Source: an uncultured Acidobacteriaceae bacterium | GTDB lineage: Bacteria > Acidobacteriota > Terriglobia > Bryobacterales > Bryobacteraceae | Assembly (NCBI GenBank): GCA_963758245.1 | Contig: CAVWUV010000014.1 | Location: 127,729-191,728 of the forward strand | DNA: 64,000 nt | Reading direction: 5' to 3' | Shown here: positions 3,583-62,431 of the stretch, piece by piece | Numbering within the stretch: the first letter of the stretch is position 1 | Layout of the letters: each line of letters starts with the position of its first letter | Notes under the pieces: generated by a model | Databases searched by the model: none | What the model was told of the DNA's origin: nothing | The model's input: the letters and a program-made list of their open reading frames with translations, nothing else | Program-made: the position numbers and the translations under genes

Positions 3583-4683
3583 ATGCCTAACCACGGAAAA
3601 GTAAAAGTCGGAATCATCGGCTCCCAATTCGAAGCGGACATCCATGCCGTTTCCTTCCAGCTCATGCCGGAAGAGGCGGAAGTCGTCGCGGTTGCCTCAC
3701 CCACCCCGGGCCACGCCGAAAAACTGGCGAAGAAATATGGCATCCCTCGCGTATTCCTCGATTACCGCGACATGCTGAAGGAATCCGACATAGAGATGGT
3801 GACCATCACCGCGCCCAACTATCTCCACGCTCAAATGACTGTAGATATCGCCAAAGCCGGCAAGCATGTGGTCTGCGAAAAGCCGCTATGCATGACTCTC
3901 GCCGAAGCCGACGAAATGATTGACACGTGCAAACGCCAAGGCGTTCTGCTCGCCTACGCCGAAGAGTTGTTCTTCACGCCGAAATACGTCAAGGCCAAAG
4001 AAATGGCGGATCAGGGCGGTTTCGGCAAAGTGTATCTCGTGAAGCAGAGTGAGAAGCACTTCGGTCCGCACAGCGAATGGTTCTGGGATGTCGAGCGATC
4101 CGGCGGCGGCGCTCTCATGGATCTGGGCTGTCACGGCATCGCATTCTGCTATTGGTTTCTAGGCCGCCCTGCCATCACCAGCGTCTATGCCCAGCTTGGA
4201 ACTTATGTTCACGCGGACAAAACCAAAGGCGATGACGACGCGCTTTGCATTCTCGAATTTGAAAACGGCGCGGTTGCCTTGATTGAAGACAGTTGGTGCC
4301 GCCGCGGAGGCATGTCGGATCGCACCGAAGTGTACGGCGAGGGCGGATTAACTTACGCCGATCTCCACATGGGCAATGCGCTTCCCACTTACAGCGAATA
4401 CGGCTTCGGCTACGCGGTCGAGAAAGCGCCCACCACAACCGGCTGGAGCTATCCGGTCTTCGAAGAGCATTGGAATTACGGAATCCCGCAAGAAATGCGG
4501 CATTTCGCCAGATGTGTCCGCGGCAAAGAAACACTGCAAGCGACCGGGGAGGATGGTCGCGTCGTTATGGAAGCGCTCTACGCCGCCTACGCTTCTGCCG
4601 GTACAGGCCAGAAGATCAAAATGCCTTACCAGCCCACGGCCAAGACACCCATCCATGAATGGCTGAATCGGAAGACGAAGTGA
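3583..4683 (+). CDS. Gfo/Idh/MocA family NAD(P)-dependent oxidoreductase (cytoplasmic)
   Basis: N-terminal Rossmann motif VKVGIIGSQFEADIH and the conserved EKP motif (VVCEKPL). The 366-aa length is typical of the family. No signal peptide. Confidence 0.85.
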   Translation: MPNHGKVKVGIIGSQFEADIHAVSFQLMPEEAEVVAVASPTPGHAEKLAKKYGIPRVFLDYRDMLKESDIEMVTITAPNYLHAQMTVDIAKAGKHVVCEKPLCMTLAEADEMIDTCKRQGVLLAYAEELFFTPKYVKAKEMADQGGFGKVYLVKQSEKHFGPHSEWFWDVERSGGGALMDLGCHGIAFCYWFLGRPAITSVYAQLGTYVHADKTKGDDDALCILEFENGAVALIEDSWCRRGGMSDRTEVYGEGGLTYADLHMGNALPTYSEYGFGYAVEKAPTTTGWSYPVFEEHWNYGIPQEMRHFARCVRGKETLQATGEDGRVVMEALYAAYASAGTGQKIKMPYQPTAKTPIHEWLNRKTK

Positions 4684-5681
4684 AACCCCCGCTGCTCGAG
4701 AACATTCTCGCCCAGCCCCAAGCCCTCCGAGCCGTTGCATCACATCAGTTCGGTGAAGGTCGCGACGCGCTGATCAAATCAGCGGAGCTTTTGCGCTCGA
4801 GCGAACGAATCGTTTTATCCGGCATGGGAGGATCGTTCGCCGCCTGCATTCCGCTCAGCTATTTCTTCGCTGAGCGAGGCGTGCCTGTTTCGCTCATCGA
4901 AACCTCAGAGCTGCTGCATTTTCAAACGCCCATCTTCCATGCCGAAACCGCCGTCATTCTGGTTTCGCGCTCCGGCGAGAGCGTCGAAGCAACCAAGCTC
5001 CTGAAGAAGCAACCTTCTCGGGTAATCGGTGTCGTGAACGTTCCGGGCAGCTCGATTGCTTCGAATGCTACTCAGACAATCTTGCTCGGCTGTCCGCCAG
5101 ACGAGTTAGTCGCGATTCAAACCTACACCGCGACTGTCGTTACGCTTTTGCTGCTTGGCGCGGCATATTTCAACGAGCTGGACGCGATCAGATCAGAGCT
5201 TGACTCGACCATCGACGCGCTCTCCCGCTGGGTACCAGAATGCCCCGAAGACTTTCTGAGGATCGGATCGCCACTCTACCTCCTCGCCCGCGGTCCATCG
5301 TTGGCCTCCGCTAATCTAGGCGCGCTCCTCTTTCACGAAGTCGCAAAGACGCCCGCAATAGCAATGTCAGCCGGCCAGTTTCGGCACGGCCCCGTCGAGG
5401 TCGCGGGCGAGCACTTTCGCGCCATCATAATTGGCTCGCAAAAAGCGACGGCGGAATTGGATGCCGCCTTGGCGCAAGATCTTCTCGAAGCGCACAGCCA
5501 AGTTTGTCGGATCGGGGCACCAGACAATGTTCCCGCCCGGTTCGCTCCAGTTGCCGAAATCATCCCTTTGCAATTAGCCGCTTATCAGACCGCAAAACTC
5601 CGAGGCATTCCGCTCGGTCATTTTCGCTTCGCGCCCGCTATCACCCTTTCCGAAACCGGTTTCATTCGACGTGACCACTAA
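4659..5681 (+). CDS. SIS-domain phosphosugar isomerase/deaminase-like protein (GlmS C-terminal/AgaS-like)
   Basis: Two SIS-type modules: VLSGMGGSFAA ... ILVSRSGES, followed by a second half. The 340-aa size matches. It overlaps the upstream gene by 25 nt and the downstream ROK kinase gene by 11 nt, so the three are probably one operon. Confidence 0.8.
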   Translation: MAESEDEVKPPLLENILAQPQALRAVASHQFGEGRDALIKSAELLRSSERIVLSGMGGSFAACIPLSYFFAERGVPVSLIETSELLHFQTPIFHAETAVILVSRSGESVEATKLLKKQPSRVIGVVNVPGSSIASNATQTILLGCPPDELVAIQTYTATVVTLLLLGAAYFNELDAIRSELDSTIDALSRWVPECPEDFLRIGSPLYLLARGPSLASANLGALLFHEVAKTPAIAMSAGQFRHGPVEVAGEHFRAIIIGSQKATAELDAALAQDLLEAHSQVCRIGAPDNVPARFAPVAEIIPLQLAAYQTAKLRGIPLGHFRFAPAITLSETGFIRRDH

Positions 5682-8973: not shown

Positions 8974-10172
8974 GCTCACGCCGTGCCTTTCTCGGACAAG
9001 TTGCCACTGGTATCGGAGGGTTGGCAATTCCGGGAGCCGTCCTGGGTGCAAACGACCGTCTCCGATTCGGCGTTATCGGTTATGGCGCGCGCGGGCAGGA
9101 GATCGTTCGTGACGCGCTGAGTTGCTCAAACACCGAATTCGCCGCCGTCTGTGACATCTACACGGATCAGCGGGAGAGAGCGAAATTCATTGCGCCGGAC
9201 GTCAAGACCTTCCTCGATCATCGGTTGATGCTCGAGCAGAAAGATCTTGATTTCGTATTGATCGCTACGCCGCAGCATCTGCACTGCGAGCATTTTGTCG
9301 ATTCGATCCAGGCCGGCAAACACGTGTATTTGGAAAAGACCATGGCGTTTACAGTTGACTATGCCAAGCGCATGAGGAACGCTTATGACCCGGTGAGAAG
9401 TAAACAAATCGTGCAAGTCGGCCACCAGGCTTGCTCCTCCGGGCATGTTGCCGACGCACAGAGTTTTCTCGCGGGAGGCAAGCTAGGCCAAATCACCGGA
9501 ATCGACGCGACCATGTACCGCAACACGCCCCATGGCAAACCGCAATGGTACCGACCGATCAGGCCGGACATGACGCCCGAGAACATTGTGTGGAGCAAGT
9601 TCTTGGGAGACGCGCCGAAGGTTGCGTTTGATGCCAATCGCTATCAGAACTGGCGCTTCTTCTGGGATTACTCGGGCGGAAACGTCTACGAAAATATGTG
9701 TCACCAGGTCGCATTCTGGTACAAGGTTCTCGGCTTGCAGATCCCTCGGGAAGTAAACATGACCGGCGGTCTCTATTTGTGGAAAGACGGCCGCCAGGTT
9801 CCCGACACCATGACTGTATCGATGCTTCAGCCCGAGAACATTCTGTTCAACTGGGTTTCCGGTTTCGGCAATGCAAACCTGGGCGTCACCGAACAGGTGT
9901 TGGGCTCGGATGGAACCATCACGCGAGGAATGCAGATCCGCTATGTTCCCGAAAAAGTAAACCGCCCGGATGGCGAAGCGCTCATTGGCCAAACGTCAAC
10001 AGTTCGCTCGGCGCACATGCAAAACTTCCTGGACGCGATTCGCAACAGCAGGGAAGTGAACTGCCCGTTCGACCTGGGCTATCGCGTTTCCATCGCCTGC
10101 CGCATGGCCGTCGAAAGCTACCGCCAAGGCCGCACCACGCGCTGGGACCCCTCAAAAGAAGAAGTAATCTAA
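8970..10172 (+). CDS. Gfo/Idh/MocA family oxidoreductase, Tat-exported
   Basis: TTG start in a TTGA overlap with the GMC stop. Twin-arginine signal SRRAFLGQVATGIGGLAIPGA, then a Rossmann motif LRFGVIGYGARG and the EKT/EKP-type motif (VYLEKT). Confidence 0.85.
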   Translation: MSSRRAFLGQVATGIGGLAIPGAVLGANDRLRFGVIGYGARGQEIVRDALSCSNTEFAAVCDIYTDQRERAKFIAPDVKTFLDHRLMLEQKDLDFVLIATPQHLHCEHFVDSIQAGKHVYLEKTMAFTVDYAKRMRNAYDPVRSKQIVQVGHQACSSGHVADAQSFLAGGKLGQITGIDATMYRNTPHGKPQWYRPIRPDMTPENIVWSKFLGDAPKVAFDANRYQNWRFFWDYSGGNVYENMCHQVAFWYKVLGLQIPREVNMTGGLYLWKDGRQVPDTMTVSMLQPENILFNWVSGFGNANLGVTEQVLGSDGTITRGMQIRYVPEKVNRPDGEALIGQTSTVRSAHMQNFLDAIRNSREVNCPFDLGYRVSIACRMAVESYRQGRTTRWDPSKEEVI

Positions 10173-10186
10173 ACTTCGCACAAATC

Positions 10187-10255
10187 ACCGACCCACGACC
10201 GTCAGGGAGCGATGTTCTGTTCTTACCGAGCCGCGACCGTCAGGGAGCGATCTTC
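10187..10255. repeat. 31-bp imperfect direct repeat (two copies, 38-bp period) duplicating the 3' end and stop codon of the GT39 gene
   Basis: 10187-10217 and 10225-10255 match at 28 of 31 positions. The perfect 18-bp core CGACCGTCAGGGAGCGAT lies at 10196-10213 and 10234-10251. Copy 2 contains the last codons and TGA of the minus-strand gene 10240..12057. Confidence 0.8.
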
Positions 10256-12057
10256 CCCACCGGATGATTCGTCATCAAAAACTTGCCCCCGCTTTCGGCA
10301 ACGACGTTCAGATCTGCGCGTTCCACCGCGCTCTCGATTCGCCGCACGCCAGCTTCATCCGCGATGAAATACCATCGCTCCGGCTCGGCCCACAAGCTCT
10401 TGAATTTTGCATCGTCGATAAATACCTTCGGAGCGTTCGGAGCGTAAGACCCATACACCAGGTTCAGAACCCGTCCATTCAAGAGCAACCCGGAACGATC
10501 TGTGTAGAAGAAAATAGACGAGAACGCGTAGTAGTGACGGTCAACAATCAATCCGCCTTCCGGAGATCGCAGCAGTGCATTAGCCAGCGGTCGCGACGAC
10601 AGATAAGGATCGAAGACCACCAGCGCCAGTCGAGCTGCATGAAAGAAAAGCACCATCATCAGCCCCGCTGCCAAGAAAGCTCGCCGGCTCTTTGCGAGAA
10701 TCGTTCCTAAAGCGCCAACCAGAAACGCAACCGCGGCAACGGCGAGAGGCAGGCGAAGGTAAGCAAACGAGCGAAGCGTGAGATCTTCAATGTGCCCCAT
10801 CGACAGCGTGTAGGCTGAGCGGTGCTCTGAGAGCGCACTGGCGATATCACCCGGAGCTGGGACATTTCGCACCAGGAACAAAATCGTTATGGCTGCCAGC
10901 GCTGCGCATCCTGCAATTACCGAAAGCACGCGCGTTCCCCGGCGGACCGCCACTCCACCGGTTGCCATAGCCGAACCTAACAGCAGCGCCAGCGCCGGAT
11001 AACAGGGCATCGAATAGTATTCCTGCGTTGTCGAAAATGTGAAGAACACTAGAACAAAGCCCGTCCAGCAGAGCGCCAACAAACGGGCGCGGCCGGCTCG
11101 GTCGATTGGTTTGAACGAAAGCTTCGCCACGGCCGGAAAGTAAACGCTCCAGGGGAACAGCCATACCAGGTGAAGCAGCCAGAACCAGAGGCGCGGAACT
11201 GTGTTGTAATCCCGCGGGTAACGCAAGTTAAGGAATCGGAGCAGTTGCTCGTTGATGAAGTAGAACCACAAAAATCCGTGATATTCTCCCGGAACGCTGT
11301 GCAAGGTGAAGGCGAAATACGGCGGGTTTCTCAGAGTCGCGAGAACATGCCACGGAGCAGCAATCAGGAGCGCGATCAATAAACCGCTGAAAGGACGCAG
11401 CCGTTTCCAAGTTCTCAAAGAAAAAAGCTGCCTGGTTACAAACAGATAGAGAAGACCGGCGCCTATCGGGAAAACCACCGCGATTAAACTCTTCAGCAGG
11501 AGGCCTGTTCCGAGACTCGCTACCAATACGAACGCCCATGCTCGCGGATGCTGCTCCTGTTCATCCAACGCCCGCAGGAACGCCCACATCGCGAGCGCGA
11601 TTGTGAACGTCAGCATCACGTCGGGAATCAGAATTCGAGTAAACAAAAACAGGCCAACGCACGTTGACATGATTAGACCCGCATAGAACCCGGCCCGCCG
11701 TCCGAAGGCCCAAATGCCGAATACAGCGGTCAGCCAGCAGAGGCCAATTGCCGAGAGAGCCACCGGAATCCGAGCGGCCCAATCGTGTACGCCGAAAAGT
11801 TTGTACGAAATCGCCATCAACCAATAAATAAGGGGCGATTTTTCGAGGTAAATAACGCCGTCGAGCCGCGCGGTTACCCAATCGCCGGAATCGAGCATAG
11901 TTCGTGCGATCTGTGCCTGTACGGCATCGACGTCGTCCATCAGGGAGGGAGGAGAAATGATGCAGCCCAGGTAGATCGCAGCCGCGAACGCGAGAACCGC
12001 CAGATACAGGTACAGGTATCTGCGGGCTATCCCGTGCAGGCGCCCGCCATTCCTCAC
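10240..12057 (-). CDS. GT39/ArnT-PMT family polytopic membrane glycosyltransferase
   Basis: 605 aa with about 12 predicted TM helices. The N-terminal loop carries the acidic DD motif after TM1 (SLMDDVDAVQAQIARTM...EKSPLIYW) typical of the ArnT/PMT_2 family. The C-terminus is a soluble periplasmic domain. Confidence 0.85.
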   Translation of the reverse strand: MRNGGRLHGIARRYLYLYLAVLAFAAAIYLGCIISPPSLMDDVDAVQAQIARTMLDSGDWVTARLDGVIYLEKSPLIYWLMAISYKLFGVHDWAARIPVALSAIGLCWLTAVFGIWAFGRRAGFYAGLIMSTCVGLFLFTRILIPDVMLTFTIALAMWAFLRALDEQEQHPRAWAFVLVASLGTGLLLKSLIAVVFPIGAGLLYLFVTRQLFSLRTWKRLRPFSGLLIALLIAAPWHVLATLRNPPYFAFTLHSVPGEYHGFLWFYFINEQLLRFLNLRYPRDYNTVPRLWFWLLHLVWLFPWSVYFPAVAKLSFKPIDRAGRARLLALCWTGFVLVFFTFSTTQEYYSMPCYPALALLLGSAMATGGVAVRRGTRVLSVIAGCAALAAITILFLVRNVPAPGDIASALSEHRSAYTLSMGHIEDLTLRSFAYLRLPLAVAAVAFLVGALGTILAKSRRAFLAAGLMMVLFFHAARLALVVFDPYLSSRPLANALLRSPEGGLIVDRHYYAFSSIFFYTDRSGLLLNGRVLNLVYGSYAPNAPKVFIDDAKFKSLWAEPERWYFIADEAGVRRIESAVERADLNVVAESGGKFLMTNHPVGKIAP

Positions 12058-56209: not shown

Positions 56210-56560
56210 ATGCGAACTCTAGTGCGTGCTATGTCCCTGTGGCTGGCCTTCGGGTGCCTGGGACGCGCCGCTGAAATTCAGGGCGTGATTGCCGACTGGA
56301 ACTGCACGGCTGCCATGGTGCGTGACGGCCGGGAGAAAACTTTGAAACGGAAACGCGCCTGCTCTCTCATGAAGAACTTTAACAGGTCTGGATACGGGTT
56401 AATCACCGATGACAAGAAGTTCTACAGGCTCGACGACAATGGGAACAAGCAGGCCCGTCTGCTTTTGAAGAACTCGCCTGACAAGGATAATCTTCGGGTA
56501 ATAGTAACTGGCGAAGTTGAAGGGGACGCCATGAAAGTTACAAACATGAGCCTGCTATAG
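56210..56560 (+). CDS. Small secreted hypothetical protein
   Basis: 116 aa with signal peptide MRTLVRAMSLWLAFGCLGRAAE. No recognisable motif. It ends 56 nt upstream of the ASK1-N-like gene. Confidence 0.5.
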   Translation: MRTLVRAMSLWLAFGCLGRAAEIQGVIADWNCTAAMVRDGREKTLKRKRACSLMKNFNRSGYGLITDDKKFYRLDDNGNKQARLLLKNSPDKDNLRVIVTGEVEGDAMKVTNMSLL

Positions 56561-56616
56561 CGTCTCGTATCGTTTAAGTAAGTCTTACTCCAGAAACCTT
56601 AAACCGAGGATTACAT

Positions 56617-58008
56617 ATGCAACTGCGCGCCATTTGCTTCGTCGACATGCCATTCGGGAAGAAGCCCGATCTGGCAAGTGGCCTCGAAGTCGATTTCGAC
56701 GGCGTGTACGAGGCGGCGATCGAACCAGCTATTACTGAATGCGCACTGGAGCCAATTCGCGGTGACCGCGAACGCACCGGCGGAATTATTCACGCGCCCA
56801 TGTTCGGGCGATTGCTGCTCTCGGACTTTGTTATTGCCGATCTAACGCTGGCGAACCCGAACGTCTTTTACGAGCTCGGAATCCGGCACACGGCGCGGCC
56901 GTTCACGACGGTGCTGATTTACGCTCCCATCCATGCTCTTCCCTTTGACGTCGGTATGGTCAGGGCGATTCCCTATGAGCTCGAAAACGGCAAGCTGACG
57001 AATCAAGCGGCCGAGAAGCTCAAATCCAGCATAACTGCGCGCTTGAATGAAGCGATTCGCGGCGCAGCCTCGAAGGACAGCCCCCTGTATCAGCTCATCC
57101 CAAAGTTCCCAAAGATCGATCTACCGCATGAGATCACGGATATCTTTCAGGATCAGGTGAGGCACTCCGAAGAGTTTCGCAGCCGTTTAGCGGATGCCCG
57201 AGCGAAGGCTTCAGACAAAGATCGGCTCGCGGCGCTAACGGAGATCCAGCAGAGTCTGGGCAATCTGAGGACGGCCCAGAGCGAGATTCTCGTCGATCTG
57301 ATGCTCTCGTACCGCGATGTGAGCGCCTGGGATCAGATGGTGAACCTGGCGAACGAATTTCCGGATCACCTGAAAGCAAATGTAATGGTTCGCCAGCAGC
57401 TCGCCTTGGCTCTTAATAGGAGGAACCAAGCGGGTGATCGAGATCGCGCGCAGAGAGTCCTTGAGGACCTTTTGAAAGAAAAAGGCGCAGATCCGGAGAC
57501 GCAGGGCATTTTGGGGCGTGTGCACAAGGATCGTTATCGCGAGTTGAAGAGCAAAGGAAGTTTCCTCGCGTCCGCCGCGCTCGATGATGCGATAGAGGCT
57601 TATACGAAAGGTTTTGAGAGCGATCCTCGCGACTACTATCCGGGAGTGAATGCGATAACGCTACTGCTTGAGAAAGGTGATCCGGATTCGCTGAAGGCGG
57701 CGGACCACCTTGTTCCGCTAGTAAGCTTTGCGGTGGCTCGGCGGGGCGGCAGCTCGTCAAGCGACTACTGGGATCTGGCAACTACGTTAGAGATGAGTGC
57801 GATTGGCAACGATTGGGCCGTAGCCGTACGAGTACTACCCAAACTGCTCTCAGCCGGAAAAGCATCCTGGATGATCAAGACGACTCGAGACAATCTCGTT
57901 TTGCTGAAGGCAGCGCGCGAACGCGCCGGCCAGAAGACTGAGCAATTGGATGAGATCATCGGGCGCTTCGAGGCACGGTACCAGGAACTCTGCGGCCAGG
58001 AGTCATAG
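56617..58008 (+). CDS. Kinase-less homologue of the ASK1/MAP3K5 N-terminal regulatory module (deoxyribosyltransferase/TIR-like N-domain plus DUF4071 'MAP3K TRAFs-binding' TPR domain)
   Basis: 463 aa, with the ATG preceded by GAGGAT. The N-domain segment CFVDMPFGKK...SDFVIADLTLANPNVFYELGIRH parallels ASK1 ...NADIAVVEMSD..RQPSLFYHLGVRE. The C-terminal half is colinear with the ASK1 central regulatory region (LSYRDV..WDQMV, ALALNRRN.AGDRDRA, GILGRVHKDRY, AIEAYTKGFESDP, YPGVNAITLLL, DYWDLAT). The comparison is from recalled sequence and is not computed. Confidence 0.7.
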   Translation: MQLRAICFVDMPFGKKPDLASGLEVDFDGVYEAAIEPAITECALEPIRGDRERTGGIIHAPMFGRLLLSDFVIADLTLANPNVFYELGIRHTARPFTTVLIYAPIHALPFDVGMVRAIPYELENGKLTNQAAEKLKSSITARLNEAIRGAASKDSPLYQLIPKFPKIDLPHEITDIFQDQVRHSEEFRSRLADARAKASDKDRLAALTEIQQSLGNLRTAQSEILVDLMLSYRDVSAWDQMVNLANEFPDHLKANVMVRQQLALALNRRNQAGDRDRAQRVLEDLLKEKGADPETQGILGRVHKDRYRELKSKGSFLASAALDDAIEAYTKGFESDPRDYYPGVNAITLLLEKGDPDSLKAADHLVPLVSFAVARRGGSSSSDYWDLATTLEMSAIGNDWAVAVRVLPKLLSAGKASWMIKTTRDNLVLLKAARERAGQKTEQLDEIIGRFEARYQELCGQES

Positions 58009-58166
58009 AAACATTTTTCTCTTGACCGGATCACCTATGTAAGCGGGCTCCCAAGGGCCTGGCCAGTGGAGGAGGACTTCTGGCCACATCACCAGCGGCG
58101 GTAGACCATTCAATAGAGAGCGTACGAAAGCCGTTCAGACTGCGCAGGAAGTGGGCGCTCGCTCTG

Positions 58167-59672
58167 GTGGCTTTAGCGGCTGTCGCGGTGATCTACGTTA
58201 CTGTGCTCGCGTTAAATTGGCCTTTCACCGAGCAGAGCGTGGTTGATGTTCTGCAGGAACGGTCAGTGCGCTCTGTTACAGTAGATCACTTCTATCGGAC
58301 ATACCTTCCGCCCGGATGCGTTGCCGAAGGCGTCAACTTCCTGCATCGGAAACATAAAAACAAGCCGCCTCTGATTACAATTCAGAGGCTCGTCATCGCG
58401 GGCAGTTATTCGGGCCTGCTCACGATTCAGAATCGGCTTTCGCTCGTGCGGATATTTGGGATGCACGTGACCGTGCCGCCGAAACAGGCGGATGGTGAAC
58501 CCAGTCCGATTATGCCGCTGAACTACAGCAAATCGCCTTCGAAAATGATCATCGACAAAATTATCGCTGATGGAGCGGAGCTGGATTTCCTATCGAGTGA
58601 TTCCGGCAAAAAGCCTTTCCGATTGATCATCGATAAGCTCGCGCTGCATGATGTGGGCAACAACCGGCCGATCCCGTATCGCACGATTATTTCCAATACC
58701 GTGCCTCCTGGAAAAATTCGATCAACCGGGAAATTTGGCCCGTGGAATCCGAATAGCCCTCGCAGCACCCCCGTGGAAGGTTCCTACACGTTGCAAGACG
58801 CGAACCTGGCATTCTTTAGCGCAATAAGTGGAACCCTGTCCTCGAGTGGAAATTTTCACGGAACACTCGGCGAAATGACCGCGCAAGGTACCACGGATGT
58901 TCCGAACTTCAAAGTAACCGATACCAGCCATACACGGCGATTGGCCGCCGAATTCCACGCGACCGTTGATGGCACAAACGGGAACACCTTGTTGCAAAGC
59001 GTCATCGCACATTTCGACAGAACTACCGCGGTGTTTAAAGGCTCCGTATCGGGTAAAGAAGGTGAGAAGGGAAAGACGGCGTCGCTTGATATGACTGCCG
59101 CAAACGGACGTATCGAGGACCTTCTGAATCTGTTCATCTCGTCGAAACGCGCTCCCATGACCGGCGGGGTCAGCGTGCGGGCGCACGTTGAGCTTCCACC
59201 TGGACCAGAACCATTTGTCAGCAGGCTGAAGCTCCAAGGCGATTTCGGGGTAGACGCGGGCAAGTTTACCGACGCTCCCACCGAAGCTGATCTGACGAGG
59301 TTAAGCGAAAGCGCAGAGAAGCGCAAGAAAGTCAATCCCGAAGACCCGGAAAGAGTTCTCTCTGATTTGAAAGGTCACGTTTCTGCGATTGATGGGACGG
59401 CAACATTCTCGAATTTGTCTTTCAGTGTTCCAGGCGCGAAAGCTGAGATGCATGGAACGTATCGCCTTACGGATTACAAGATAGACATGCATGGCACGAT
59501 GCTTACCACCGGGAATCCGTCAGACGCAACAACGGGGTTCAAGTCGTTCCTGATGAAAGCGATAACGCCCTTCTTTAAGAAAAAAGCATCCCAGAAAGTC
59601 GTGCCCTTCAAGATCACGGGAAATTATGCCAATCCTGTGGTGGCGCTGGACTTAGGCGTTAAAAAGAAATAG
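58167..59672 (+). CDS. AsmA/TamB-like envelope protein (tentative)
   Basis: N-terminal hydrophobic anchor followed by a long beta-rich region with repeated G-[ST]-x-x-L motifs, as in AsmA-like proteins. The GTG at 58167 is the first canonical start. The frame is open from 58026 and encodes a typical positively charged pre-anchor segment (KPFRLRRKWALAL) with no ATG, GTG or TTG. Confidence 0.45.
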   Translation: MALAAVAVIYVTVLALNWPFTEQSVVDVLQERSVRSVTVDHFYRTYLPPGCVAEGVNFLHRKHKNKPPLITIQRLVIAGSYSGLLTIQNRLSLVRIFGMHVTVPPKQADGEPSPIMPLNYSKSPSKMIIDKIIADGAELDFLSSDSGKKPFRLIIDKLALHDVGNNRPIPYRTIISNTVPPGKIRSTGKFGPWNPNSPRSTPVEGSYTLQDANLAFFSAISGTLSSSGNFHGTLGEMTAQGTTDVPNFKVTDTSHTRRLAAEFHATVDGTNGNTLLQSVIAHFDRTTAVFKGSVSGKEGEKGKTASLDMTAANGRIEDLLNLFISSKRAPMTGGVSVRAHVELPPGPEPFVSRLKLQGDFGVDAGKFTDAPTEADLTRLSESAEKRKKVNPEDPERVLSDLKGHVSAIDGTATFSNLSFSVPGAKAEMHGTYRLTDYKIDMHGTMLTTGNPSDATTGFKSFLMKAITPFFKKKASQKVVPFKITGNYANPVVALDLGVKKK

Positions 59673-59755
59673 ATCGACATCTCCACATCGGGGAACTTTT
59701 CCCTATTCCCAACGTTTTGCATTCTTGCGTCGTCTAAAGCGCGAAGAAGAGCAAT

Positions 59756-60319
59756 GTGGTGTGGGAGATAGGATTGCCGCTCCAGTTCGCGGCTAGCCTG
59801 CCGGACAATCCTACGGACGCGGAGCTTGCAGAAGGATGCAAGCGCGGGAACCTGCGCGCCTATGAGCGGCTTTACGAATTGCATTCTGCGCGAATGAAGA
59901 GTCTGGCCTTTCATTTGATTGGCAGCCGCGCGGATGCGGAAGATAGCGTGCAGGAGACTTTCTTGAAAGTGTACAGAGCGGTACGCCGGTTCGAAGGACA
60001 ATCGTCACTTTCAACCTGGATTTACCGGATTCTGATCAACTGCTGCTATGACGTGATGCGAAAGCGCCAGCGGCTTGCAGAAAATCCGGCCCCCCGCGAG
60101 CTTTCAACGGATAGCAAATTGCCGTTGAAGATTGCGCTCGAGCGAGCGTTAGCGTCATTGAATGACCGCCAGCGCCTCGTGTTCGTGATGTTTGAAGTCG
60201 AGGGTTTGAAGCACTCCGAGATCGCAGGAATTCTGGAGGTTCCGGAAGGCACGTCACGCAGTTGGCTGTTTGAAGCGAAGCGAGAGCTGAAGCGGATGTT
60301 GATGGGGTCAAGCGCATGA
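59756..60319 (+). CDS. ECF-subfamily RNA polymerase sigma-70 factor
   Basis: Region 2 (ERLYELHSARMKSLAFHLIG...AEDSVQETFLKVYR, WIYRILINCCYD) and region 4 (LNDRQRLVFVMFEVEGLKHSEIAGILEVPEGTSRSWL). Confidence 0.9.
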   Translation: MVWEIGLPLQFAASLPDNPTDAELAEGCKRGNLRAYERLYELHSARMKSLAFHLIGSRADAEDSVQETFLKVYRAVRRFEGQSSLSTWIYRILINCCYDVMRKRQRLAENPAPRELSTDSKLPLKIALERALASLNDRQRLVFVMFEVEGLKHSEIAGILEVPEGTSRSWLFEAKRELKRMLMGSSA

Positions 60320-60978
60320 AGTTCGAATGTGGCGATCTGGAACGGGCGCTCGCTGTTTCGGATCTGATGCCCGAAGCGCGGGAGCATCTGAAAGGTTGCG
60401 CTGCTTGCCGGCGTGAGTACCGGCTCTGGACCGATATTTCGGCTACCGCAAAGGAGCTGCATCAGGATTGGGAAACTCCGGAGCTATGGCAAGAGATTCG
60501 CAAAAAGCTCCAAGCCGAACCGAAGCTGAAAGAGAAGCCGGTTTGGTGGAAAGAATGGAAGGCATGGACGTTGGCGGCCATGATCGTAGTTGCAGCGGGG
60601 CTGCTGATCGTGTGGAACTGGCGCCAGGCCGCTACTGGCTCCAAGGGGGCCGAATCCGCTCGTGCATTGCCCATTTCAGGAGATCGAGATTTTCTGACGG
60701 ATCAAGCGCTCCGGGAAGTGGAAAAAACCGAGGCGGCTTACCGGCAATCGATCGACAAGCTTTCACGGCTTGCTGAACCCGAGCTGCAACACCCCGCCAC
60801 GGCAGTCGCGGTGAATTACAGAGAGAAACTGCTGACGCTTGATTCCGCGATTTCGGAAACGCGAGCCAATCTCGATCAGAACCGGTTCAACGTCCGCCTG
60901 CAAACAGAGCTGGCTGATTTATATCGGGAGAAACAGCAGACTCTCAAGGAGTTACTTACTCGTGATCAAAAGAATTAG
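60316..60978 (+). CDS. Anti-sigma factor (zf-HC2 type, single-pass membrane)
   Basis: ATGA overlap with the sigma factor gene. N-terminal H-x3-C-x2-C motif (EHLKGCAACRREY) and a central TM helix (AWTLAAMIVVAAGLLIVW). Confidence 0.75.
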   Translation: MKFECGDLERALAVSDLMPEAREHLKGCAACRREYRLWTDISATAKELHQDWETPELWQEIRKKLQAEPKLKEKPVWWKEWKAWTLAAMIVVAAGLLIVWNWRQAATGSKGAESARALPISGDRDFLTDQALREVEKTEAAYRQSIDKLSRLAEPELQHPATAVAVNYREKLLTLDSAISETRANLDQNRFNVRLQTELADLYREKQQTLKELLTRDQKN

Positions 60979-62431
60979 TATTTTGACCCTGGCGCTCACA
61001 TTCGGCGCTTTGGGTCGCGAAGAATATACGCGCAGCTTCGATAAGACGGTGGCCGTGAGACCGGGTGCGAAAGTGTACTTGGAACATCGGCTGGGGGACA
61101 TCGAGATTCGGACGCATGCGCAGCCCGAGGTGGTGATTCATGCGGACATCAAGGTCTCGGCCTCCGATACGAATCAGGCCAAGGCATTCGCGGATCGCAT
61201 TGAGATCCTGGTCGAGCCTTCGTCATCCGAGCTAACCGTACGGACTCGATATCCCGAGACAGGCAGCTCGTTTTTTGGCATTCACAACATCTCCTATTAC
61301 GTTCATTACCAGATAACGATCCCCGAGTCTGCGCCACTGGAAGTGAAGAATTCGTTCGGAGCAGTTTCTGTTTCCGGCGTGAAGGCAAACAGCGATATCA
61401 CAACGTCGCACGGCACTCTAGAATTTCGCGATGGACGCGGCACACAGCGGCTTGAAGATTCATTCGCTGGTATCAGAGTGGCAAACAATGCTGGAGACGT
61501 AACCGTGGAAGGGAGCAACGGCGGGGTGGATGCGGCTGATGTGACTGGCGCGCTCAGTGTACGGGATCGTTTTGCAGGCGTAACGGTAAGTCGCGTGTCG
61601 AAGGGAGTAATCGTCACGAATAGCAACGGGACGGTGGAAGTCACGGATTCCGGCGGGACTGGAAATATCAAGAACTCGTTCGGCAATGTGACCGTTCGCA
61701 ACTTCAAGGGAGACCTGACGGTGAATAACACCAACGGCCGGGTAGAAGCTACTAATGTCGAGGGGCTCGCCGAGCTAAATACGACTTTTGGCGAGGTGCG
61801 CTTTGCCGATGTCAGACGGCAATTATCTATCCGCGCGAATAACTCGAAGATCGAGGGCGAGAGAGTGGGCGGCCCGCTAACAATCCAGAACTCGTTTGGA
61901 CCTGTGACGGTGAGCGATGTTGGCGGGGGCGTGAGGATTCAGTCAGGAAATGGGGGAGTGTCGATTTCAAAAGTGCGTGGCGAGGCGAATGTGAAGACCA
62001 GCTTCGCCATGGTTCAGGCCAACGATATCGGCGGATCGCTACTCGTGGAAAATACGAACGGCGGCGTCAAGGCTTCCAATACGCGCGGGGGAGCTCAGGT
62101 GACGACCAGCTTTGGCGCGGTCTTTCTGGAAGGAGTCTCCGGTCCGCTTCAGATTGAGGATCAGAACGGCGCAGTCGACGCCACGAGCACGGCTCAAGGC
62201 AGTTGCCAGCCCATCGTGATTCGCACTTCGTTCTCGACTCTGCGAATTCGGCTGCAAGGCGAGCCGAGCTATCGGGTCGCGGCGCGAACCTCTTTCGGCA
62301 AGATCCGCACGGATTTTCCGCTGAACGTTTCAGGATCCATCTCGAACGACGATGTAAATGGGGTAATCGGCGGTGGCCGTTGTGAAATGAGGCTGACCGA
62401 TAATAACGGCACGATTGAGATTGTGAAGTAA
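60962..62431 (+). CDS. DUF4097-family beta-repeat (putative adhesin-like) secreted protein
   Basis: GTG at 60962 gives the signal peptide VIKRISILTLALTFGALG. Many repeats of the pattern N-[ST]-[FN]-G-x-V-x-V/A (NSFGAVSVSGV, NSFGNVTVRN, TTFGEVRFAD, NSFGPVTVSD, TSFGAVFLEG), typical of DUF4097. Confidence 0.7.
   Translation: MIKRISILTLALTFGALGREEYTRSFDKTVAVRPGAKVYLEHRLGDIEIRTHAQPEVVIHADIKVSASDTNQAKAFADRIEILVEPSSSELTVRTRYPETGSSFFGIHNISYYVHYQITIPESAPLEVKNSFGAVSVSGVKANSDITTSHGTLEFRDGRGTQRLEDSFAGIRVANNAGDVTVEGSNGGVDAADVTGALSVRDRFAGVTVSRVSKGVIVTNSNGTVEVTDSGGTGNIKNSFGNVTVRNFKGDLTVNNTNGRVEATNVEGLAELNTTFGEVRFADVRRQLSIRANNSKIEGERVGGPLTIQNSFGPVTVSDVGGGVRIQSGNGGVSISKVRGEANVKTSFAMVQANDIGGSLLVENTNGGVKASNTRGGAQVTTSFGAVFLEGVSGPLQIEDQNGAVDATSTAQGSCQPIVIRTSFSTLRIRLQGEPSYRVAARTSFGKIRTDFPLNVSGSISNDDVNGVIGGGRCEMRLTDNNGTIEIVK

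Follow-up and report, generated by a model that had tools for sequence, protein, structure and literature searches.

A solo bacterial relative of the ASK1 sensor half with a predicted N-glycosidase domain, encoded on an acidobacterial contig

Bacterial proteins combining an N-glycosidase domain with a sensor of tetratricopeptide repeats (TPR) represent the 'core Tpr' architecture, and the N-terminal module of animal ASK1 (MAP3K5) is derived from the same family. The abstract of the survey of Burroughs and Aravind from 2020 reportedly predicts that signals derived from nicotinamide adenine dinucleotide (NAD+) are recognized by the TPR scaffold, which became part of the ASK signalosome of animals. 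A passage of a 2021 eLife paper credits this survey with the bacterial origin of ASK components (Burroughs and Aravind 2020, J Bacteriol 202:e00365-20). Here a stretch of 64,000 nucleotides of contig CAVWUV010000014.1 from an uncultured Acidobacteriaceae bacterium, in the following called the window, was analysed with regard to a gene for a protein of 463 aa. This protein is a bacterial relative of the sensor half of ASK1 and a solo member of the known family.

In the initial annotation of the window the function of such proteins in bacteria was regarded as unknown. This has to be corrected. The family, its link to ASK and the NAD-related logic were already published in 2020, curated Pfam models exist, and one member, BcTpr, was tested in 2023. 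Literature searches for TPR-S, PF13281 and PF20308 yielded nothing relevant beyond the papers cited here. BcTpr originates from a Bacillus cereus operon out of the survey of Burroughs and Aravind (Liu et al., bioRxiv 10.1101/2023.05.26.542521). The protein of 415 aa is described as MilB-like in residues 1-189, followed by the TPR in residues 190-415. An isomer of cyclic ADP-ribose (cADPR) was formed as product and NAD+ was depleted. Production of the isomer, depletion of NAD+ and phage defence were all abolished in the variants N82A and E86A. Truncation of TPR helices led to less product, and binding of cADPR was measured with a Kd of 1.9 µM (Liu et al., bioRxiv 10.1101/2023.05.26.542521).

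The gene of the window is complete (Table 1). Its start codon is supported, because the N-terminus MQLRAICFVDMPFG agrees with the consensus start of the family. The match to PF13281 (MAP3K_TRAF_bd, formerly DUF4071), expected in the initial annotation, was obtained with 184 bits at a gathering threshold of 24.1 (E=5.7e-54). The alignment covers aa 83-445 and model positions 1-361 of 371 and is near full-length. PF20308 (TPR-S, Tetratricopeptide Repeats-Sensor) was matched over the whole model (aa 237-350, positions 1-102 of 102) with 93.7 bits at a gathering threshold of 27.6 (E=1.2e-26). The AlphaFold2 model, with a predicted local distance difference test score (pLDDT) of 92.8 and a predicted template modelling score (pTM) of 0.85, shows an alpha/beta domain that is joined by a helical linker to a long region of helical repeats. 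According to Pfam and this model, the layout is an N-glycosidase-like domain, a helical linker and a TPR-S sensor with no other fused domain. Library scans of the neighbours showed no recognisable adjacent effector, either, and in both respects the initial annotation holds. The similarity to PF13281, PF20308 and ASK1 is far beyond chance.

Human ASK1 was on top of the phmmer search with the 463-aa protein against the PDB sequences (8qgy, E=7.6e-21; 5ulm, E=4e-20; 288 aligned residues). The alignment begins at query residue 144 and includes the linker. The blocks LSYRD, ALNRRN..GDR, GR..KD, GFES, G.N...LLL and YW[DE] match human ASK1 residue by residue. When a profile built from alignment A1 with 80 diverse homologues was used, ASK1 8qgy was found with E=1.1e-35 in two colinear stretches (profile 60-104 and 183-434). 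The weaker one pairs 'viaDlt..lananVfYeLGvRh' of the family with 'IAVVEMSdaFRQPSLFYHLGVRE' of ASK1. Comparable results were obtained when the full model was compared with the PDB by Foldseek. Chains A and B of 8qgy came first (E=4.7e-11 and 1.1e-10), and with 464-479 aligned columns both domains are covered. The central regulatory region of ASK1 (5ulm) was next with E=2.3e-9 and a root mean square deviation (rmsd) of ~3 Å over 278 columns. Generic TPR proteins ranked below ASK1, with E-values several orders of magnitude worse. The global rmsd of the full model on 8qgy is 13-16 Å; thus, the two domains differ in their mutual orientation from those of ASK1, or this orientation is uncertain.

No Pfam match for PH or Pkinase was detected in the 463-aa protein, which stops one helix past the TPR. 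It is a homologue of the ASK1 sensor module and no MAP3K. The initial annotation had described the protein as colinear with ASK1 ahead of the PH and kinase domains, and phmmer, profile and Foldseek agree on this. The block-by-block matches which it had read in a TPR-like DUF4071 region recur in PF13281, PF20308 and the phmmer alignment. The structures of the thioredoxin-binding domain (TBD) and the central regulatory region, which it had named for a Foldseek comparison, are the top matches 8qgy and 5ulm.

A TIR/nucleoside-2-deoxyribosyltransferase-like N-terminal domain had been proposed as well. Foldseek (TIR-STING, MilB, DNPH1) and a profile match to Rcl support this. The modelled elements of the domain are E6-10, H27-41, E45-48, H59-68, E71-75, H81-93, E98-102 and H129-147. 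For Foldseek against the PDB, the isolated domain (aa 1-168) was modelled with a pLDDT of 86.6. The joint best matches were TIR-STING 9lmq and the cytidine monophosphate (CMP) N-glycosidase MilB 4jem, both with E=2e-4. DNPH1 8os9 was found with E=2.5e-3, MyD88 TIR, SPARTA TIR and the retron Ec86 effector with E ~1e-2, and the ASK1 TBD (8qgy_A) with E=1.5e-2 over 143 columns. In a search of the PDB with a profile of 41 N-domains, Rcl/DNPH1 N-glycosidases were the sole matches (E=0.0019-0.008). The family motif NVFYELG is paired with GVGYELG of Rcl, and E86 falls on the Glu of YELG. The GVGYELG motif of Rcl presumably holds the catalytic Glu. A PADLOC model for TIR effectors matched partially (aa 43-122, E=6.7e-7), and the Pfam TIR families PF13676 and PF01582 gave no match in the 463-aa protein. 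Judged from the model, the N-domain belongs to the TIR/deoxyribosyltransferase fold class.

The motif quoted in the initial annotation is present with D75, N80-P81-N82, E86, G88 and R90, and is aligned with ASK1 by the profile. Conservation of the pocket residues was scored in 80 diverse homologues with 31-79% identity. G88, R90 and Y120 are kept in all 80, D75 and R48 in 79 of them. N82 was found in 68 and E86 in 67 of the homologues (~85%); both are invariant in a closer set of 12 sequences. About 15% of the family members in the set of 80 have no E86. The protein of the window carries R48, D75, N82, E86, G88, R90 and Y120. Nothing of what the initial annotation had listed as contradicting it was found; for instance, the catalytic-type residues of the deoxyribosyltransferase/TIR fold are present. 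The sole significant viral structural match was A0A8S5MRP4 of the BFVD (Siphoviridae sp. ctD6g5, 303 aa), annotated as CMP/hydroxymethyl-CMP hydrolase (E=6.5e-6, 281 columns, 21% identity). Since this alignment reaches past the N-domain, phages may carry a shortened relative.

The helical linker was described correctly, with model helices between aa 156 and 214. Its DSP motif is kept in 73-75 of the 80 homologues. In the TPR-S region N267, R268, R301, K304, N345 and W385 are near-invariant across the 80 sequences, and R233 is invariant in the closer set of 12. The conserved polar and basic residues recur in the blocks ALNRR, GRIYKD, GIN and YWE of ASK1.

An exhaustive family search over representatives at 50% identity gave 13,805 matches at E<=1e-3, 3,137 at <=1e-10 and 578 at <=1e-30. 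The best 150 representatives have nearly all 430-490 aa and are aligned end to end. The stand-alone form of ~450 aa is no oddity; it is the commonest architecture of the family. Also in the survey of operons, as given by Liu et al. (bioRxiv 10.1101/2023.05.26.542521), 'core Tpr alone' is the largest class (29/78). In a scan of one genome per species with a profile of 12 sequences, the family was found in at least 580 species genomes. Among the matches listed are Acidobacteriota, Verrucomicrobiota, Nitrospirota, Bacteroidota, Campylobacterota, Chlorobiota, Actinomycetota, Chloroflexota, Firmicutes and Planctomycetota as well as Alpha-, Beta-, Gamma- and Deltaproteobacteria; the distribution among these matches is patchy over many phyla.

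Rare variants of the module were found with a C-terminal TIR_2 domain (P0222) and with a C-terminal DUF4231/SLATT membrane effector domain (P0190). The two PF13281/TPR-S stretches of P0251 (1110 aa) suggest a tandem duplication of the whole module. Five representatives (P0183, P0206, P0229, P0232 and P0269) have a homologous helical N-terminal extension of 220-260 aa (pairwise BLAST E 1e-11 to 1e-56). Its motif 'CHG.xGG..RR' is reminiscent of the TPR-S block 'GLLGRIYKD', and possibly the extension is a degenerate second module of the TPR-S kind. Apart from weak TPR matches in P0206, Pfam gave no family for it.

A survey of recurrent partners had been proposed in the initial annotation. Open reading frames (ORFs) were called crudely in 67 of 80 loci, and 125 immediate neighbours were scanned with Pfam and PADLOC. 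The Pfam counts were TIR_2 9, patatin 8, additional TPR-S 8, pYEATS 4, ThsB_TIR 4, SLATT 3 and trypsin 3. PADLOC reported phospholipase effectors of the type known from cyclic oligonucleotide-based antiphage signalling systems (CBASS), ThsB, SAVED-TIR, DRT reverse transcriptase and GajB. For 26 of the 67 loci no close co-directional neighbour was found. In general, a substantial minority of the members lies in conflict-system contexts and many are solo; TIR, patatin, pYEATS, SLATT and trypsin genes recur across the family, and fused effectors are rare. Alcohol dehydrogenase (ADH, 5) and Ivy (4) matches also recur, equal in number and size to two BLAST clusters of the same alphaproteobacterial loci. 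At L056, L066, L075 and L079 the gene is flanked by a ~140-aa protein upstream and a ~332-aa protein downstream, and the downstream gene is also found at L069 and L060. Judged by count and size, these clusters probably correspond to the matches to ADH and to Ivy (inhibitor of vertebrate lysozyme). The arrangement seems to reflect synteny within the lineage, without relation to defence.

The 463-aa protein is probably, although far from certainly, a ligand-gated N-glycosidase of NAD+ or nucleotides and a solo N-glycosidase and TPR-S member. Catalysis with Glu86 and Asn82 is proposed, because both residues are intact here and essential in BcTpr according to the preprint. The initial suggestion that the N-domain itself may be the effector would fit these two observations. 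The TPR-S superhelix would bind a trigger, most likely an NAD+-derived or other nucleotide (e.g. a cADPR isomer), possibly a protein. Upon binding, either the packing of the N-domain on the TPR or the state of oligomerisation would change, so that autoinhibition is relieved or oligomers are formed. With the N-domain released, Glu86 could then serve to split NAD+ or a nucleotide at the N-glycosidic bond. NAD+ depletion and/or a signalling nucleotide would result, probably in a growth arrest triggered by phage or stress. Nucleotide sensing by an ASK1-type module fits a fly-genetics paper of 2026, in which cADPR is made by dSarm, removed by Raw and acts upstream of Ask1/JNK; its authors suggest Ask1 as receptor. 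Also in favour of the proposal are the conflict-system domains among the neighbours and fusions in the family (fusions to TIR_2 and SLATT/DUF4231) and the patchy distribution.

Several points weigh against this proposal. The structural matches of the N-domain are moderate with template modelling (TM) scores of 0.5-0.6 and E 2e-4 to 2e-2. With the N-domain alone (aa 1-190) no Pfam family was found, deoxyribosyltransferase-family models included, even at E<=10. BcTpr alone gave E. coli no phage protection; the adjacent, catalytically inactive BcTir was required (Liu et al., bioRxiv 10.1101/2023.05.26.542521). In the scans of the window no TIR or other partner gene was found. This unreviewed preprint is the sole experimental source on BcTpr. 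BcTpr is putatively assigned to the family on the basis of its architecture as described, its origin in the set of Burroughs and Aravind and the matching residue numbering. Finally, the close clade is 70-88% identical, has ordinary GC content and lies amid housekeeping genes in varying contexts, which is atypical for a defence gene.

The latter point leads to a physiological role without defence, namely that of a vertically inherited housekeeping or stress enzyme, e.g. a regulated DNPH1/MilB-type N-glycosidase for nucleotide sanitation or a protein sensing an endogenous NAD-derived signal. We consider this unlikely, yet deserving of attention. The best 120 database matches to the 463-aa protein are all ~465 aa long, and more than 120 clusters fall within 69-88% identity; where named, these matches come from metagenome bins of Acidobacteriaceae or Bryobacterales. 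The GC content of the gene is unremarkable. At L005 the protein has diverged about as much (85%) as the adjacent ECF (extracytoplasmic function) sigma factor (86%) and the product of orf530 (82%); at L001 the values are 79% for the protein and 85% for the sigma factor. The neighbours are metabolic and regulatory and differ between genomes. PADLOC with 53 ORFs of the 64-kb window gave no TIR model and no defence system, and a defence island was rejected, as the generic matches were only a sigma-54 activator and DndA/SspA-like desulfurases. Furthermore, the nearest enzyme relatives at sequence level are DNPH1/Rcl, and the best viral structural match is annotated as 'CMP/hmCMP hydrolase'. Strong conservation in one lineage is, however, also compatible with defence. 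The recurrent neighbours and fusions of the wider family are conflict-system domains, the distribution over phyla is patchy, and the sole tested homologue acts in phage defence through NAD+.

In this genome the 463-aa protein would work either on its own or together with a partner from another locus. The need of BcTpr for BcTir for protection speaks for the latter, i.e. for a TIR or other signal-generating or regulatory partner outside the window, which comprises only 64 kb of the genome. TIR, patatin or an extra TPR-S gene is immediately adjacent in a sizeable minority of the family loci. We regard such a partner in trans as decidedly unlikely, since functionally coupled defence genes are normally adjacent, solo loci form the largest class in the published survey and more than a third of the sampled loci (26/67) lack a close neighbour in the same direction. 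Likewise, no TIR, patatin, SLATT or pYEATS genes were found within 5-8 kb in seven distinct contexts of close orthologues, compared together with the window. It is highly improbable that the N-domain is a non-catalytic scaffold, i.e. a regulatory or binding surface nucleating a complex, with the neighbouring ECF sigma/anti-sigma modules as candidate partners. The homologous domain of ASK1 is a binding platform without the Asn and the Glu (PMC10972558), a part of the family has no E86, and of 8 distinct acidobacterial contexts, the window counted, 6 have an ECF sigma/anti-sigma operon next to the gene, in two configurations. By contrast, N82, E86 and all further invariant residues of the pocket are present in the window protein and throughout its clade, and this speaks for catalysis having been retained. 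Outside this lineage, no enrichment of ECF sigma genes was seen next to family members (weak matches within 6 kb in 3/80 loci). They are very numerous in Acidobacteria, and the adjacency may be due to chance plus synteny.

The gated N-glycosidase remains the preferred reading, and the gene is listed with its parts and with the compared contexts in Table 1. The 116-aa ORF ends 56 nt upstream of the gene, as annotated. Its hydrophobic N-terminus MRTLVRAMSLWLAFGC... resembles a signal peptide when read by eye, and it contains three Cys. Beyond this N-terminus, the initial label as a secreted protein found no confirmation. No family of Pfam, PADLOC or NCBIfam was matched at threshold, only DUF5818 weakly (E=0.013), and no homologue was found in any related locus searched. 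It is considered a possible gene only, and nothing was found that would tie it to the system of the 463-aa protein. The 501-aa ORF had been called AsmA-like. This could not be confirmed, as no Pfam family was matched at E<=10; NCBIfam gave only a sub-threshold match to GspN (E=0.0034, 16.9 bits, cutoff 50), and PADLOC no defence match. As conserved operon partners both ORFs were rejected. No homologue was found in L001-L086, and the 501-aa ORF recurs once, at L087, with 58% identity. The flanking genes named in the initial annotation are not conserved at related loci and are regarded as irrelevant to the 463-aa protein.

The ECF operons downstream of the gene in the window, L001, L005/6 and L087 are of a shared type. 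The pairs at L088 and L089 are of a different type (29% identity, zf-HC2 anti-sigma) and lie divergently upstream. ECF adjacency as a general feature of the family was rejected, since it is absent from the top Pfam neighbour families. Synteny and the high density of ECF genes may explain it in Acidobacteria. The DUF4071 gene and the shared-type operon are separated by a variable interval: it is empty at L001, holds a 75-aa and PIN (VapBC-like) pair and a helix-turn-helix (HTH) gene at L005/6, and the 501/530-aa ORF in the window and at L087. It looks like a small insertion hotspot. For the 530-aa ORF (60839-62431, +) the listed start is a TTG that lies 140 nt within the anti-sigma-like gene ahead of it (60316-60978). 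Its orthologues at L005 and L087 are called at 489-492 aa; therefore, translation probably begins near 60960-60980. The product is repetitive and beta-rich, without Pfam family. Further neighbours of close orthologues are molybdopterin oxidoreductase and trehalose synthesis genes.

Table 1 Features of the 463-aa gene and its surroundings (positions in the window, for L loci in the respective locus)
Feature	Position	Strand	Basis and remarks
Complete gene, 463 aa	56617..58008	+	ORF list, ATG start
Shine-Dalgarno-like GAGGA	56606..56610	+	7-11 nt before ATG; read from intergenic sequence
N-terminal alpha/beta domain, aa 1-150	56617..57066	+	Model, Foldseek, profile; TIR/nucleoside-2-deoxyribosyltransferase ('DRHyd') fold class, ASK1 TBD counterpart
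Predicted active-site strand, loop, helix	56839..56889	+	D75-L-T-L-A-N80-P-N82-V-F-Y-E86-L-G88-I-R90-H91; positions checked by script
Helical linker, aa 151-221	57067..57279	+	Near-invariant D154-S155-P156; model helices H156-160, H171-195, H200-214
TPR-S superhelix, aa 222-436	57280..57924	+	PF20308, Foldseek 5ulm; homologous to TPR part of ASK1 central regulatory region
C-terminal capping helix, aa 442-459	57940..57993	+	Model helix H442-459, no further Pfam domain; last element, ASK1 continues here into PH and kinase
Stop codon	58006-58008	+	ORF list
116-aa ORF	56210..56560	+	Ends 56 nt upstream of the 463-aa gene; within reported span
501-aa ORF	58167-59672	+	Hydrophobic N-terminus; downstream of the 463-aa gene
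ECF operon, window	59756-62431		Shared type; interval 58009-59755
Context L005/L006, 85% identity	11033-13786 (ECF operon, L005)		Pentapeptide protein upstream; downstream 75-aa and PIN pair, HTH gene, then window-type ECF sigma/anti-sigma/~490-aa operon; interval 9390-11032 (L005)
Context L001, 79% identity	9496-11883 (ECF operon)		Window-type ECF operon directly downstream; interval 9399-9495
Context L087, 77% identity	8187-10875 (ECF operon)		Gene order as in window, including the homologue of the 501-aa ORF
Context L002, 74% identity			E1 dehydrogenase upstream, DoxX downstream
Context L003/L004, 70% identity			PALP enzyme upstream, UDG downstream
Context L088, 72-73% identity (with L089)	3749-4844 (ECF pair)		Different ECF sigma/zf-HC2 anti-sigma pair, divergently upstream
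Context L089, 72-73% identity (with L088)	3763-4870 (ECF pair)		As L088

The regulatory half of ASK1 apparently originated from this bacterial family, which connects the TIR/NAD-derived signalling of prokaryotic immunity with the SARM1-ASK1 stress pathway of animals. A small, soluble bacterial version encoded by a single gene, with intact predicted active site, is a convenient model for questions on the ligand and the gating of TPR-S. New in this study are one more solo member and an acidobacterial lineage keeping the gene unusually well conserved outside defence islands. Of remaining interest are the role of solo copies, as BcTpr alone was non-protective, and the conservation of the acidobacterial clade amid housekeeping genes. 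As a speculation, which we hold to be quite unlikely, this clade could represent a self-sufficient, vertically inherited NAD-signal module of one protein. It would make and sense a cADPR-like nucleotide, with the N-domain as enzyme and TPR-S as receptor, in an endogenous stress role, possibly feeding ECF-sigma circuits, and not in phage defence. If true, the animal SARM1 -> cADPR -> ASK1 axis would have a prototype in free-living bacteria, and direct binding of NAD-derived nucleotides by an ASK1-type TPR could be shown in a tractable system.

Compared with the bacterial TIR NADase effectors (TIR-STING, ThsB, SPARTA TIR), the N-domain is similar in structure, and the logic of sensor-gated NAD+ cleavage would be common to both. 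They differ in the sensor, which is TPR-S in the protein of the window and STING, SAVED or Argonaute in the TIR effectors. To our knowledge, no filament-forming behaviour is known for N-glycosidase and TPR-S proteins, unlike the TIR effectors compared. MilB and DNPH1/Rcl have the fold class in common with the N-domain (Foldseek 2e-4 to 5e-3). In DNPH1/Rcl a Glu lies at the start of the helix after the central strand, where E86 is placed on the Glu of YELG. In contrast to these enzymes, the N-domain has the NPN loop in place of the phosphate-binding loop and carries a TPR sensor as fusion partner. BcTpr, the homologue that was tested, uses NAD+ and not nucleoside monophosphates.

In ASK1, the TBD and the TPR part of the central regulatory region (8QGY, 5ULM) are colinear with both domains of the window protein, and the blocks ALNRR, GR..KD, G.N and YW are common to both proteins. 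ASK1 adds PH, kinase, coiled coil and SAM domain, whereas the window protein ends after the TPR. At the positions of Asn82 and Glu86 the profile alignment shows Ser and His in ASK1. From these residues the ASK1 domain is predicted to be inactive and the bacterial N-domain to be active. ASK1 binds thioredoxin redox-sensitively via the TBD with the region of Cys250/Cys225; the window protein has Cys only at 7, 42 and 459, and the ASK1 loop 216-250 falls outside the profile alignment with the bacterial family. In 8QGY the TBD packs on the TPR of the opposite protomer. The TBD was described as resembling thioredoxin in the cryo-EM paper (PMC10972558). A thioredoxin-like fold was rejected for its bacterial counterpart, because the top 50 Foldseek matches of the N-domain contain no thioredoxin-fold protein; TIR, MilB and DNPH1 are present. 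Thus, the counterpart (aa 1-150) of ASK1 residues 95-266 (PDB 8QGY) groups with the TIR, MilB and DNPH1 folds. Ser and His at the functionally essential Asn and Glu positions suggest that the ASK1 TBD may be an inactivated N-glycosidase/TIR-like domain.

The closest described system is BcTir/Tpr. The gene of the window has no adjacent TIR gene, and BcTpr needs BcTir for protection. The window gene is acidobacterial, chromosomal and located amid housekeeping genes, and its product has 463 aa compared with 415 aa of BcTpr. Strong indirect evidence points to orthology in architecture, BcTpr being compared by description only. Both proteins would share the plan of two domains, an N-terminal MilB-like N-glycosidase of ~190 aa and a following TPR region. 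In equal numbering, D10-M11, N80-P81-N82 and E86 of the window protein correspond to I10-M11, N80-P81-N82 and E86 of BcTpr, and the Asp of the DL.L.YR block is D218 in the former and D217 in the latter.

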